Positions 1 through 64,000 of a DNA stretch of 64,000 nucleotides are shown piece by piece. Numbering within the stretch: the first letter of the stretch is position 1; the number at the start of each line of letters is the position of its first letter. Under the pieces are notes generated by a model that saw only the letters and a list, made by a program, of their open reading frames with translations, was not told the origin of the DNA and made no database searches. The stretch lies in the sequence record PV654397.1. One strand, 5' to 3'. Source of the stretch: Escherichia phage WPEC5. The position numbers and the translations under genes were made by a program.

Positions 1-185
1 CCATTAATGACAATTTCAGTATTAACAAAATACTCACGTAATTCTTCTAGATAATTTGACCATATTTTATGGGTAAACGCATTTTTATTAATTGTGTTAG
101 TACTTCGGTGATTGTGGTGTAATTTAAATAATTCCATATAAGTGAATTGTATATGTTTGTAATTCATATTTCCCCTTACAAAAAT

Positions 186-206
186 AGCCCGAACTTATGT
201 CGGGCT
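186..206 (-). terminator. Candidate intrinsic terminator after the leftmost gene
   Basis: Inverted repeat AGCCCGA/TCGGGCT with 7-nt loop, followed on the minus strand by a U-rich tract. Confidence 0.5.
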
Positions 207-213
207 ATATGTA

Positions 214-873
214 TTATTCATCGTCATCATCGTCGTCGAGATCTAGGTAAATGTCACTATCACCATCATCGAAGTACTCAACCACTACACCAGGAATGTT
301 CAGTGCTGTGAACATCGCATCATATTTTTCATCAGATGGGATAAGAACAAACTCATCAATGCTTTGAATTTCAGGCATACGATCTTCAGGAATACCCATT
401 TGCAATAAGGATTGGATGATTTTTTCTTTGTATTCTTGGAACTTCTCTTCTGATTCAAAATCCATAATAAGTTGTGCTACATAACCATCTTCGTTACCAA
501 ATGCGATTGACATTTGTGCATCAGTACCGACATATGACCATGTACGCTTGCCAGTATTTTTCTCAATGAAGTTCTGAATTTCAAGAACGATTTCATGACG
601 AGAACTATTGGCAATGTTGTTAAGGTTAGCAACACCAGCAATAATTTCTGAACTGTCATTGGATTCTTCGAATGTGCCATAGTCACCTAATACATATTGA
701 ACACCATCACAATGTAATGCATATGCATAATCCAAATCAGCAAGTGAATCACACTTACCACGGATTGGGCGTAGGGAAAGCCCTAGGCGAAGATAACGAA
801 AGTATGTATTAGTATTTGTATTTGTCAACGTAATGCTCCTTAACAATATAAAAGTAGTTGCTGTTGTTGTCAA
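214..873 (-). CDS. Hypothetical protein with poly-Asp/Glu C-terminal tail
   Basis: Long minus ORF; track N-terminus is low-complexity so the true start is probably internal; contains SEEKFQEY, a possible family A-like motif. Confidence 0.5.
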   Translation of the reverse strand: MTTTATTFILLRSITLTNTNTNTYFRYLRLGLSLRPIRGKCDSLADLDYAYALHCDGVQYVLGDYGTFEESNDSSEIIAGVANLNNIANSSRHEIVLEIQNFIEKNTGKRTWSYVGTDAQMSIAFGNEDGYVAQLIMDFESEEKFQEYKEKIIQSLLQMGIPEDRMPEIQSIDEFVLIPSDEKYDAMFTALNIPGVVVEYFDDGDSDIYLDLDDDDDDE

Positions 874-1096
874 AAAAGATGACTAATCCTTTGTAGACAT
901 TTACACCAATCTTGATTTGGCATATTTTATTCGATTTACAAGCCTCAGTCAATAACATTTTGTGCTCTTTACTGAAAGTGTGGAAGAGTGGTTTTACATG
1001 CCACATCTCCACACCATCTAGTACTGGAAAATGTTCACTGAATTTGATCATTGATTCTTGCAAAAAATAACCTGTTAGATTCGAATCATCAGACAT
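809..1096 (-). CDS. Hypothetical protein
   Basis: Minus ORF; start moved to internal Met (MSDDSNL) because the track N-terminus overlaps the neighbour. Confidence 0.4.
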   Translation of the reverse strand: MSDDSNLTGYFLQESMIKFSEHFPVLDGVEMWHVKPLFHTFSKEHKMLLTEACKSNKICQIKIGVNVYKGLVIFFDNNSNYFYIVKEHYVDKYKY

Positions 1097-1382
1097 GTAA
1101 GTTCGCCAGGAAGTCAATTACTTCGTCATGTGTTAACTTATCACTACGCTCTAGAACATTGATGATGAATGGTGTTTGACTATATAATTCAGCCAGAAAC
1201 GCAACTTCATCAGATGTATAAGAATATCCCATAGGAACAACTTGTGCAGTCCAGTTTCCTAAAGTTTTGTTTGCAATGATTGCAACCACCGTATTACCTT
1301 TGAATTCAACATGGATTGAACGGAAACCCGAATCCTCATTCTGATCCCAAAGTACTGGGTTAGTTTTAAACAGTACTGACAT
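1089..1382 (-). CDS. Hypothetical protein
   Basis: Minus ORF packed tightly against neighbours. Confidence 0.55.
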   Translation of the reverse strand: MSVLFKTNPVLWDQNEDSGFRSIHVEFKGNTVVAIIANKTLGNWTAQVVPMGYSYTSDEVAFLAELYSQTPFIINVLERSDKLTHDEVIDFLANLHV

Positions 1383-1384
1383 AG

Positions 1385-1918
1385 TTATTTCCTCATGTAT
1401 TTTATTACATCTTCAAATAGTTTAGTTTTCAGTGCATCATCATTACCAGGTAGAAAAGTACTGAAGCTATTAAAATCTTCATTCTTGGCAAACTCACGCA
1501 TCTGTGTGGAACTGTAGCGACTTATATTTCGGTCAATTCCAGCTTGAACTGCCTTGATTGAACAAAAATTATATAACTTCCCATTGTACGTGTCAAGTGT
1601 TTTTTGGAATGGTTCAAGTCTATCTGAACCACATATGAAAAGAACATCTAAGTACTTTCCATCCAGTTCTCTCATTATATCAAACAGATTATCTTCTGTA
1701 TAGATATTTTCTTGTACAGATGGGTAAAATCCTTCTGTATAGTACATTTTCAGTTCAGGAGGTAATGGGTTTTTGATGGCATCAGTACTGGTACTAAGGA
1801 ATATTTTCAAATCAGCATTGTACTGTTCTTGTAGTGCTTGTGCTTTTTCAAACACTAAGCCATGTCCGTGATGTATTGGGTTACATCTCATGAATGATAG
1901 TATACATGTTTCTTTCAT
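1385..1918 (-). CDS. Nucleotidyltransferase, NMN adenylyltransferase-like
   Basis: N-terminal NPIHHGH (HxGH nucleotidyltransferase signature) and C-terminal SSTQMR (SSTxxR-like) motif. Confidence 0.6.
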   Translation of the reverse strand: MKETCILSFMRCNPIHHGHGLVFEKAQALQEQYNADLKIFLSTSTDAIKNPLPPELKMYYTEGFYPSVQENIYTEDNLFDIMRELDGKYLDVLFICGSDRLEPFQKTLDTYNGKLYNFCSIKAVQAGIDRNISRYSSTQMREFAKNEDFNSFSTFLPGNDDALKTKLFEDVIKYMRK

Positions 1919-61970: not shown

Positions 61971-62333
61971 TTATTTGTAAATTTTGCCACTGTCAGCCCA
62001 TACCAGGAAACGAGGCATATTATCCCATGCATCTTGTTTTAAGTTTAAGCCGTGCAATTCCTCAGTTGTTGCCATCCCTGGTACTGGCTTACTACACACC
62101 GCGAAATTTTCGCCCATATACTGATAAACCATCGTCAAATCATTTGAGATCATTATATGGATCATTGAATCCAGCATCAAAGTAGCGGCGTATTGTTCAC
62201 GCTTAAGCGGCAACATTGCAATAAGTTCCCGATAAGCTGCAATGTGAATTTTTACCGTTTCAGCCGGAAGACCTTTCATCTCATCGCGGAAGTTTACCAG
62301 GTTAAGCATGATTTTATTGATTTGAGTCGCCAT
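61971..62333 (-). CDS. Hypothetical protein
   Basis: Start moved to internal Met (MATQINK); the track extension translates the hairpin. Confidence 0.5.
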   Translation of the reverse strand: MATQINKIMLNLVNFRDEMKGLPAETVKIHIAAYRELIAMLPLKREQYAATLMLDSMIHIMISNDLTMVYQYMGENFAVCSKPVPGMATTEELHGLNLKQDAWDNMPRFLVWADSGKIYK

Positions 62334-62643
62334 CGTTTTAATCTCTCTTAATGTGTAGCGGGAAGTGTTCCCGCTCTCGATGTAAAACATTATACGCTTT
62401 TATCAGTACGGTGCAAGTACTTTCTACAAATACTTTTAAAATAGTTTTCTTTCTATATAGGAGTACTATTATTCAGTACTGAATCAATCCACCAAATCAT
62501 CCCTATACCCCGTAAAACGGCCTCAGACGCATTCTAACGCATTAATACACCTAAGCTATACATTTGCACCACTCCCAACAATCCAGGGCGTTACGGGCCG
62601 TTTAAACGCGTTAAATTATTTTCAATTATTTTGTTTTTAGGTA

Positions 62644-62671
62644 TTGACTTGATCCTGAAAAAGCGTATAAT
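62644..62671 (+). promoter_or_regulatory. Plus-strand promoter (TTGACT, 16-nt spacer, TATAAT)
   Basis: Followed downstream by CCCCAGAGGGTGC; no ORF downstream. Confidence 0.4.
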
Positions 62672-62859
62672 TACTACATAGACGCGAGAAAGCGGAAACC
62701 CCAGAGGGTGCGGAATTACGCCCAAAATTCAAGATATAAAAAAAGGATACACTCCCGCACCCTAGCAGGTAAACGCACTTTCTCAGTACTGAAATATAGT
62801 ACCATAGTCCGGCCCAGGATAGCAAGCAAATTAATTAAAACTTTTTTGCTTCCAGGGTA

Positions 62860-62887
62860 TTGCTTTATTTTTTCAGTACTGTATAAT
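62860..62887 (+). promoter_or_regulatory. Plus-strand promoter (TTGCTT, 16-nt spacer, TATAAT)
   Basis: Followed downstream by AGCCCACCGGGTGC; the TTGCTT -35 resembles a T4-type MotA box. Confidence 0.35.
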
Positions 62888-63104
62888 AGTTCCATCAAGT
62901 CGAGAAAGACTCAAGCCCACCGGGTGCATAGTTACGCCCAAAATTCAGTACTGAAAAAATTTTTAAAAATATCCGTCCAGGTCGTTGACATTGCCCCCAG
63001 TTTATAAGATAATGATTCCAGATTCAGAAAAATCTAACTCCAGATACTGCGGGGAAACTATCCCCACGCGGTAGGGGAACTATTGGAAAAACAAAATAAA
63101 ATTT

Positions 63105-63295
63105 TGATTTAGCCGTCTATACTTCCAGACGTGTAACCATCTAGCCGTTTAGCCATCCAGCCATCCAGAAATCTAGCCGTTTAGCCGTCTAGATGGATAG
63201 CCATCTTTACTTCCAGACTTCTGGAGGGCTAGACATATCTACGCCCAAAATCCATCCAGGGTAACTACACCCAAAATCCGTCAGTACTATACCAT
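63105..63295. repeat. Iteron-like cluster of short direct repeats
   Basis: Repeated TAGCCGT(T/C)TA, CCATCCAG and TACTTCCAGAC units in a non-coding stretch. Confidence 0.5.
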
Positions 63296-64000
63296 AGATC
63301 TATCTTTTGAAAGGGAGTATTCAGTACTGCCATCATAGCCCTCACTATGTTACCCTAGGAGGATGAAGACTATCATGTAGTACTGAATACTGTTAGAGGG
63401 AATCCACCAGCTTGTGCTGGTGGCATAATGCTTTAGATTAAAATCAGTACTGATACCATTCTGTTAATATCAGTACTGTTATTACGATTTTCATATGAGG
63501 TTCAAAAAGATGTACCACCACAGGAGGAACTATCTTTTCTGTACTGTCTCACGACAGGAGGTAGAGTAAATGAATTGTTCGCAGCAACTCATCACCCTAT
63601 GTAGAACATTATACAGTACTGAATCATAAAGTCAATAACTTTCTTTCATCTTTCAGTACTGATATTCTTGAGAACTACCCGACTACAAACATCATTATAT
63701 CCCACAAATCATAAACGTCCCAACGTAAATTTCAACTTTCGAAGATCCAACTTTTATTTCATAGGTACTCCAAAATTTTTAGGATCGAGATTTAGGATGG
63801 AGTACTAACCAACTTTTTGCTGGAGCCTCAAGGGGTAATTGAATTTTACCCCGAAGGGTAAAGGGGTAATTGAAATTAAGGTGAAAGTAATAATTCAGTA
63901 CTAATCATTGCGTGATTACTTTTGATTACATTTGATGTAATTTGCAAAATGGAAAAGGAGCTTGGAAACTACAAAGTACGGCAGACTTCCTCTGCCTACT

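Follow-up and report, generated by a model that had tools for sequence, protein, structure and literature searches.

The palindromic hexamer AGTACT is strongly over-represented in a stretch of 64,000 bases from Escherichia phage WPEC5 (sequence record PV654397.1; the whole stretch is referred to below as the window), where it occurs 260 times, is maintained by selection acting on the DNA and stands at fixed positions in the promoters of the early region. The same excess marks the enterobacterial Rak2-like jumbo phages sampled and goes together with the loss of the tetramer GCGC. AGTACT is read here, with a probability of about 0.45, as the binding site of a clade-conserved, sequence-specific homodimer contacting double-stranded DNA, which would serve as a self-tag of the phage genome and as an operator of early promoters; the existence of this reading protein, its identity and the effect of its binding are what we infer from the pattern. 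Phages are expected to shed palindromes of the restriction type, and that a virulent clade keeps some 900 copies of one, bending its codon and amino-acid usage, implies a strong genome-wide function.

Abundance and distribution of AGTACT

By megablast the window belongs to the Asteriusvirus group (121Q/PBECO4-like) of approximately 350-kb E. coli jumbo myoviruses, with identities of 97-99% to fEgEco12, WPEC3 and TH47 and of 84-87% to PBECO4, 121Q and slurp01. The GC content is 34.6%, and 155 of 167 crude open reading frames (ORFs) lie on the minus strand. Whole-genome counts were made on TH47 (352,450 bp), a complete close relative; the other relatives were sampled as partial sequence (for example 16 kb each of Kaldavass and Hallingskeid and 40 kb of CBB) and E. 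coli K-12 as one 50-kb stretch only. Expectations for the window were obtained from independent bases, from Markov models of orders 1 to 4, from 200 order-1 simulations and by shuffling synonymous codons within genes.

The copies are dispersed over positions 1-64000, without assignment to a strand, and were described by counts, simulations, context logos and the distribution over reading frames. The exact count corresponds to 4.1 per kb and is 12-15-fold above expectation, the expected number being 21.4 for independent bases, 17.1 for order 1, 45 for order 2 and 106 for order 3; in the simulations the mean was 17.1 (sd 4.1) and no run exceeded 30. The order-4 expectation rises to 216 only because the signal is already contained in the pentamers AGTAC and GTACT. 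The initial annotation had estimated several copies per kb and a roughly ten-fold excess from spot counts, and had proposed counting against a Markov background; exact counting bears out the estimate, and the ratio lies far above 1. AGTACT is the top hexamer of the window (z = 58.7), followed by the overlapping words GTACTG and CAGTAC. The excess of every other palindromic hexamer is 2.4-fold at most, many palindromes rich in G and C do not occur at all, and the one-mismatch neighbours of AGTACT are only 0.4-3-fold enriched. TH47 contains 917 copies, compared with 119 expected from independent bases and 104 from order 1, and all but one of its 5-kb bins hold 4-43 copies. The density in the clade is roughly one AGTACT per 250-400 bp, compared with about one per 16 kb in the E. 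coli sample, which contained 3 AGTACT and 342 GCGC; the word is thus approximately 50-fold denser in the phage.

The excess had been described as genome-wide. The copies are indeed dispersed through coding and intergenic DNA, but two segments, 26180-34693 and 36750-42469, contain none. Outside the early region of TH47 the gaps between sites are exponentially distributed (coefficient of variation, CV, 0.95) with a Poisson-like scatter, and neither regular spacing nor helical phasing was found in this genome apart from pairs of promoter sites 20-24 bp apart. The occurrence of AGTACT in promoter spacers and in the codons of a paralogous gene family, also claimed from the first inspection, was seen (e.g. 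AGTACTGTATAAT), but it accounts for about a quarter of the sites at most. Promoters and paralogue codons were rejected as the full cause, since no more than about 70 of the 260 sites fit promoter contexts or the codon motif TTYCAG...AGTACT; an origin from a repeat or mobile element was likewise rejected, the flanks being nearly without information beyond three bases on either side.

Selection at the level of DNA

In the window 73 sites are intergenic (8.4 per kb) and 184-187 lie inside ORFs (3.4 per kb). All three reading frames of the gene strand are used by the coding sites (61, 42 and 70), and the 187 copies in ORFs compare with 50.1 +/- 6.4 after synonymous codons are shuffled within genes. 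The coding copies of TH47 number 813, approximately 3.6-fold more than the 229 +/- 14 remaining after the same shuffle. Its Ser-Thr dipeptides are written AGT-ACT in 392 of 773 cases (51%, with 115, or 15%, expected), and 394 of 782 Val-Leu dipeptides are written GTA-CTN (151 expected). As a dipeptide Ser-Thr is itself 1.5-fold more frequent than expected (773 against 501), the number of Thr-Ser being 485. The use of all frames, the excess over shuffled codons and the dipeptide bias therefore show that the constraint acts on the DNA and not on the protein, and that it is strong enough to distort protein sequence.

Outside the early region of TH47 the density is equal in coding and intergenic DNA (2.18 and 2.26 per kb), and its profile around gene starts and stops is flat, with no preferred position; within the early region coding DNA holds 5.2 and intergenic DNA 9.8 sites per kb. 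Comparison with PBECO4 (83.6% identity) showed AGTACT to be kept at 62 of 95 and 62 of 80 sites (65-78%), compared with 42-44% both for all hexamers and for composition-matched hexamers. When the differences between the window and TH47 were polarized by PBECO4, AGTACT had been lost at 3 of 64 ancestral sites and the control hexamers at 140 of 789, a loss approximately four times slower. The sites gained often derive from AGTGCT. Over longer distances, ten pairs of orthologues from the window and CBB (29-55% amino-acid identity) contain 17 and 24 sites, none of them at homologous positions. The density is kept across genera while the positions differ, and the pattern is therefore that of a distributed tag, in which density is under selection and single sites turn over.

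These data bear on the possibility that the word has no reader and that the excess arises as a side effect of biased mutation or repair (a drive resembling very-short-patch repair) or from a physical property, for example the flexibility needed to pack 350 kb of DNA. A repair drive has been considered as the origin of the iterated palindromes of cyanobacteria. The conservation of density instead of position and the frequent gain from AGTGCT are compatible with such an origin, and the highly iterated palindromes of cyanobacteria have been discussed in relation to DNA methyltransferases (PMC4390886). The slow loss, the distorted amino-acid usage and promoter positions fixed across genera speak against it, as does the finding that the one-step neighbours are not depleted; the signature of repair drive was rejected on this last ground, the neighbours that would be mismatch precursors showing no depletion. 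Moreover, one block of the same genome excludes one orientation of the motif and another block lacks it (see below), and a physical property would be symmetric between the strands. An origin without a reader is thus considered improbable.

Dyad symmetry of the flanks

The extended consensus of the sites, weakly conserved, is TTCAGTACTGAA. It reflects preferences for C at -1 and G at +6 and weaker ones for T at -3/-2 and A at +7/+8, and CAGTACTG is found 59 times in the window. When the 5' flank on the gene strand was compared with the reverse-complemented 3' flank, C stood beside the core in 42% and 48% of the sites, respectively, and G in 10% and 7%; T occupied the next two positions in 35-42% on both sides. 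The residual asymmetry runs in the direction of the compositional skew of the gene strand. The sites are dyad-symmetric, as expected of a site read by a protein. Selection at the DNA level and dyad symmetry are both in keeping with the earlier suggestion that the enrichment implies a function, while the step from a selected, symmetric word to a protein-bound self-tag is one that we infer.

The consensus TTCAGTACTGAA appears in one paper as the erroneous TrpR motif of a program. Operators of the TrpR or LexA type, which bear some resemblance to the sites, were rejected because spacing and arrangement do not fit.

Placement in early promoters

The highest density of sites (138, or 6.4 per kb) is reached in the early region, 42470-64000 on the minus strand, which consists of small genes with sigma70-type promoters. 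By coordinate mapping this region would correspond approximately to the direct terminal repeat of fEgEco12, which measures 20,993 bp (PMC13070987). In about 16 promoters of the window AGTACT is located 7 nt upstream of the -10 hexamer and directly abuts it (AGTACT-G-TATAAT). In 15 intergenic cases it lies 27 nt upstream of the -10 box, directly 5' of the -35 box (AGTACT-TGCAA or AGTACTA-TTGACA). The two kinds of site are often paired, with 20-24 bp between them. The same layout was found in the Pectobacterium phage CBB, and the positions are thus conserved between Asteriusvirus and Mimasvirus. An example is the promoter at 58755-58795 (minus strand), AGTACT-TGCAATTAGTTTTC-AGTACT-G-TATAAT, with the -35 site at 58786-58791 and the -10 site at 58766-58771; the latter adjoins the -10 box and provides the TG of an extended -10 element, and a hairpin, GGGAGAAA..TTCTCCC, follows downstream. 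Another promoter with three sites (48017, 48044 and 48068) occupies 48002-48090 on the minus strand, upstream of the ORF at 47597-48001, and a paralogue of that ORF, at 61283-61585, has the same type of promoter with sites at 61594 and 61613.

Roughly 40-65 sites, all in the early region, are fixed relative to the -10 or -35 box, and about 75-80% of sites are elsewhere. AGTACT does not behave as a plain sigma70 promoter element, as most sites lie elsewhere and the intergenic density equals the coding density outside the early region. A protein occupying the promoter sites would cover positions that RNA polymerase contacts.

Many early promoters are followed by a conserved stem-loop of the type GGGGAGAAA-N-TTCTCCCC, located about 10 nt past the -10 box and just before the ribosome-binding site; examples on the minus strand are at 58720-58755, 54110-54150 and 50000-50040. 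An excess of the words GGGGAA and CCAGGG is due to these conserved stem-loops, which possibly act as 5' stabilizers or regulatory hairpins.

Distribution in the clade and absence of GCGC

AGTACT was the top hexamer in every sample of an enterobacterial Rak2-like phage, comprising at least four named genera (Asteriusvirus, Eneladusvirus, Mimasvirus and Alcyoneusvirus) as well as unclassified relatives. The observed and expected numbers were 90 and 10.6 for Yersinia phage fHe-Yen9-04 (Eneladusvirus), 182 and 11.8 for CBB (Mimasvirus), 82 and 6.4 for XbC2, 28 and 5.4 for Salmonella phage Munch, 58 and 5.4 for Klebsiella phage RaK2 (Alcyoneusvirus), and, in 16 kb each, 67 and 5.6 for Kaldavass and 57 and 5.1 for Hallingskeid. 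In the last two the density is about 4 per kb, and AGTACT is denser than GATC. No enrichment was found in Pseudomonas phage PA5oct (1 observed, 7.8 expected), Xanthomonas phage XacN1 (0 and 4.1) or T4 (2 and 3.4). A search of IMG/VR with the capsid protein returned 80 loci, 52 of them at least 8 kb long; only 2 of these 52, with 99% capsid identity to the Yersinia phage, showed the enrichment, and the other 50 (64-70% identity) did not. All tested carriers were isolated on Enterobacterales except XbC2, which is recorded on Xanthomonas. In practice the word offers a simple diagnostic signature of the clade.

The tetramer GCGC is absent from the window (about 56 expected) and from TH47 (about 200-330 expected). 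It is also absent from every AGTACT-rich sample, whereas genomes without the enrichment have near-normal GCGC. The absence suggests that an activity directed at GCGC is lethal to these phages. Literature searches returned no report of the AGTACT excess or of the absence of GCGC in these phages. A conversion of GCGC to GTAC by double deamination was considered and rejected by reasoning on the numbers and on the specificity of the flanks.

Methylation and base modification

A gene for a Dam-family N6-adenine methyltransferase is located at 1915-2439 on the minus strand (Pfam PF05869, E = 2.2e-32) and is annotated as a methylase in relatives. The initial annotation had proposed AGTACT as the target of this adjacent enzyme. 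More generally, the word could be the target of a phage DNA methyltransferase or of another base modification, comparable to the cyanobacterial palindrome HIP1 with its orphan methylases. It is palindromic and has a specificity of the restriction-modification kind, the genome encodes proteins resembling type II, orphan and cytosine methyltransferases besides the Dam-family enzyme, and RaK2 DNA was reported to be resistant to methylation-sensitive enzymes (PMC3622015). However, nanopore sequencing of native versus amplified DNA of Kaldavass and Hallingskeid showed modification at GATC, CCWGG and TGCAT only (PMC11780129); AGTACT outnumbers GATC in these two phages, yet no modification was reported at it (PMC11780129). 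Because data from two members of the clade that carry the motif lack a modified AGTACT, the proposal of a Dam-family target is not supported (PMC11780129). Digestion of fEgEco12 DNA with ten ordinary restriction enzymes yielded the patterns predicted (PMC13070987). The deamination neighbours AGTATT and AATACT occur at 1.1-1.5-fold of expectation and are not depleted, AGGACT and AGTCCT alone being low (0.4-0.6). Methylation or another modification of AGTACT is judged to be very improbable.

A block with half-sites in a single orientation

Three blocks are distinguished in the window, all on the minus strand. Block A (1-26179) contains 107 AGTACT together with 50 copies of AGTACA on the gene strand; on this strand AGTAC without a following T occurs 66 times and GTACT without a preceding A 35 times. 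Block B (26180-34693) comprises 8.5 kb without AGTACT. Its gene strand has 84 GTAC, of which 73 precede an A and none a T. AGTACA, often as CAGTACAG, is present 45 times, in all three frames and on the gene strand only (45 vs 0), and the pentamer half-sites number 50 in the gene-strand orientation and 0 in the other. Across the window AGTACA occurs 116 times on the gene strand and 32 times on the other.

The same pattern of block B was found in a relative of approximately 84% identity, and the AGTACA of this block are conserved in 25 of 31 cases compared with a background of 51% (p = 8e-4). Between 50 and 85 kb of TH47, AGTACT and gene-strand AGTACA together number about 25-37 in each 5 kb, a roughly constant total. 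No stretch like block B occurs within the 40 kb of CBB sampled. Genome-wide the two orientations of the pentamer are balanced (454 vs 444), without net polarity.

Block D (36750-42469) likewise contains no AGTACT. About 23 small paralogous genes are arranged there in tandem; 25 genes of this family are present in the window, with a further locus at 20755-20982. Their products, of approximately 72 amino acids, are helical and conserve the motif LGTNYQE, and the family gave no match in Pfam.

A rival explanation takes AGTACT, or its unit AGTAC/GTACT, to be the site of a phage enzyme that nicks or cuts replicating DNA strand-specifically: the palindrome could be nicked on either strand and block B on one strand only. 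The purposes proposed for such nicks are the starting of recombination-dependent replication and the loading of a clamp as an enhancer of late transcription. Late transcription of T4 is enhanced from nicks in the non-transcribed strand, and the phages studied here are distant relatives of T4 that encode several endonucleases of the HNH and homing types. CBB was reported to be without homologues of gp33 and gp45 (PMC5259590), which also counts for the idea. Enzymes of the restriction type have a similarly sharp 6-bp specificity, and the unit of block B, present 50 vs 0 by orientation, is conserved and selected. On the other side, about 900 sites cuttable on both strands would endanger the genome, and the symmetric flanks fit binding by a dimer equally well. 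No dedicated nuclease was identified, and the matches listed by PADLOC include no type II restriction-enzyme model. The nanopore study saw drops in read depth associated with nicks in another phage and describes none for Kaldavass or Hallingskeid (PMC11780129). Virion DNA is on this weak evidence probably not nicked at AGTACT, and the site of a nicking factor, one of the functions initially proposed, finds weak evidence against it in the virion DNA of these two jumbo phages (PMC11780129). Nicking or cutting at AGTACT is therefore regarded as distinctly unlikely. For a packaging role, likewise proposed at first, there was evidence neither for nor against.

Another possibility is a signal in RNA. 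AGUACU, and with it AGUACA, might be bound or cleaved in transcripts by an RNA-binding protein or a ribonuclease; nearly all genes lie on one strand, AGTACA is enriched on the gene strand only, and the transcripts of block B would hold AGUACA and never GUACU. A random 6-mer is, however, palindromic in only 1.6% of cases, and flanks symmetric under reverse complementation are not required by a reader of RNA. The pentamer units lack net polarity genome-wide, and the sites embedded in promoters are upstream of the inferred transcription starts. A signal in RNA is likewise judged to be very improbable.

Proposed role and candidate readers

In the reading preferred here, that of a DNA-binding homodimer, AGTACT in its optimal form TTCAGTACTGAA would tag the enterobacterial Rak2-like jumbo phages over their entire genomes. 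The reader would be a phage-encoded protein that possibly enters with the DNA or is synthesized very early. By occupying sites throughout the genome it could tell phage DNA from host DNA, and where sites adjoin the -35 and -10 boxes of sigma70-type promoters in the early region, its binding would make them operators as well. The tag would complement the absence of GCGC, the two words giving a contrast between phage and host by sequence only in a lineage with unmodified cytosines.

Several observations weigh against this reading. A search of the 143 ORFs of the window with Pfam showed no helix-turn-helix or ribbon-helix-helix domain and identified no reader; with Pfam and PHROGs together the matches were restricted to Dam, a ParE-like toxin, a DksA/TraR zinc finger, GNAT and a weak match to a kinase. 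The matches listed by PADLOC for 254 other ORFs, from TH47, include methyltransferases (type II, orphan and cytosine-like) and homing or HNH endonucleases. The best candidate of the autoregulatory type, the ORF at 47597-48001, gave a structure model of moderate confidence without significant fold match. The half-sites of block B in one orientation are not predicted by a simple homodimer and point to a strand-directional component. All-or-none specificity for 6 bp is seen more typically in restriction/modification-type enzymes than in transcription factors. Finally, the tested carriers, XbC2 excepted, were isolated on Enterobacterales, a distribution with which a reader supplied by the host would also be compatible.

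A host protein of Enterobacterales has a candidate in SlmA, the protein of nucleoid occlusion; phage DNA spread through the cell would activate SlmA against FtsZ and thereby block cell division. SlmA is a dimeric helix-turn-helix protein; its 12-bp site, GTGAGTACTCAC, is a palindrome centred on AGTACT, with a core identical to the phage word (PMC3020112). Cells infected with Sharanji, an Asteriusvirus, form filaments in which phage DNA is spread through the cell, no known division inhibitor being encoded (PMC11895373), and this filamentation weakly keeps the idea alive. SlmA needs, however, G1, T2, a purine at position 3, A4 and G5 (PMC3020112), and the phage flanks favour T1 and C3 (45%) and disfavour G at position 3 (8%). 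The full site GTRAGYRCTYAC occurs 0 times in the 352 kb of TH47, and GT at positions 1-2 is not enriched (27 vs 34.7 expected). The early promoters would, in addition, carry a host protein without a known role in transcription. SlmA sites were rejected on the misfit of the flanks; half-sites of the SlmA type seemed depleted, but this effect vanishes once the preference for C at -1 is counted. A reader supplied by the host is accordingly given only a very slight chance.

It is tempting to speculate further that the two words form a self/host code replacing the base modification of T4, although we hold this extension to be unlikely. A phage nuclease or another destructive activity would act at GCGC, which occurs about every 150 bp in the sampled stretch of E. 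coli, and the phage protein bound at AGTACT would protect, license or transcribe phage DNA only; the block of AGTACA in a single orientation would mark a region needing directional action of the factor. The linkage with GCGC and the approximately 50-fold contrast with the sampled host suggest self/host discrimination by sequence words. T4 marks its own DNA by hydroxymethylcytosine (Alc, EndoII/IV). The comparison is one of functional analogy, both being related large virulent myoviruses that must spare and selectively use their own DNA; T4 achieves this by base modification and shows neither AGTACT excess nor loss of GCGC, whereas in the AGTACT clade the contrast would reside in sequence words. 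The co-occurrence of the two features suggests how large phages with unmodified DNA might recognize their own genome. In the engineering of candidates for therapy, recoding of such phages could destroy the tag.

Relation to known sequence words

The nearest analogue is HIP1 (GCGATCGC) of cyanobacteria. Both words are short perfect palindromes with at least ten-fold excess in coding and non-coding DNA, and both are conserved above background, are found clade-wide and were long without known function (PMC5861425, PMC4390886). They differ in that cognate methyltransferases have been reported for HIP1, whereas AGTACT showed no detected modification in relatives (PMC11780129), and in that HIP1 has been described as quasi-periodic, whereas the spacing of AGTACT is exponential (CV 0.95). 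Among the features characteristic of HIP1, the excess in both kinds of DNA and the conservation were thus found for AGTACT and the periodicity was not. HIP1 belongs to cellular genomes, AGTACT to a virulent phage that has built the motif into its promoters.

Chi, the uptake sequences USS/DUS and KOPS are likewise dispersed short words of high density, with weak selection per site and turnover, for which number matters and not position. They are asymmetric and polar, whereas AGTACT is palindromic; polarity of the kind shown by Chi, KOPS or type III sites was not found for it, with the exception of block B (50 vs 0). To our knowledge, and as far as literature searches show, words of this kind have not been described for any virulent phage genome. 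The site of ScaI (AGT^ACT) is identical in sequence and shares the all-or-none hexamer specificity. Phages normally avoid the sites of such restriction-modification systems, whereas here about 900 are kept per genome and no protection was detected in relatives; no ScaI-like endonuclease was recognized among the matches listed by PADLOC. The SlmA site (GTGAGTACTCAC), finally, shares the AGTACT core, while the phage flanks are without, or run against, G1 and the purine at position 3.

Other features of the window

An early-region gene at 47281-47535 (minus strand) encodes a ParE-like toxin domain (PF24732, E = 6e-11) that is conserved in CBB, and the early region also encodes a DksA/TraR zinc-finger protein, a GNAT acetyltransferase and a weakly kinase-like protein. 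Between 44000 and 52000 the early region is matched in megablast by six records named Campylobacter phage, which is unexpected for an enterobacterial lineage; these could be mislabelled or contaminated records. In TH47 the word TAAATA is strongly under-represented (203 vs 628 expected), which fits the avoidance outside promoters of a T4-like late promoter (ATAAATA, reported for CBB and GAP32), and GATC occurs at about half of its expectation.

Downstream of the Dam and cytidylyltransferase genes, a stretch of about 400 nt at 3170-3585 (minus strand) is non-coding. It gave no match in Rfam or to transfer RNA or transfer-messenger RNA, and it is the only part of positions 1-25000 that can be aligned at 77-85% with other genera. 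RNAalifold on five sequences predicted 68 pairs, 25 of which show compensatory double changes, and the stretch probably represents an undescribed structured RNA of the Rak2-like jumbo phages.

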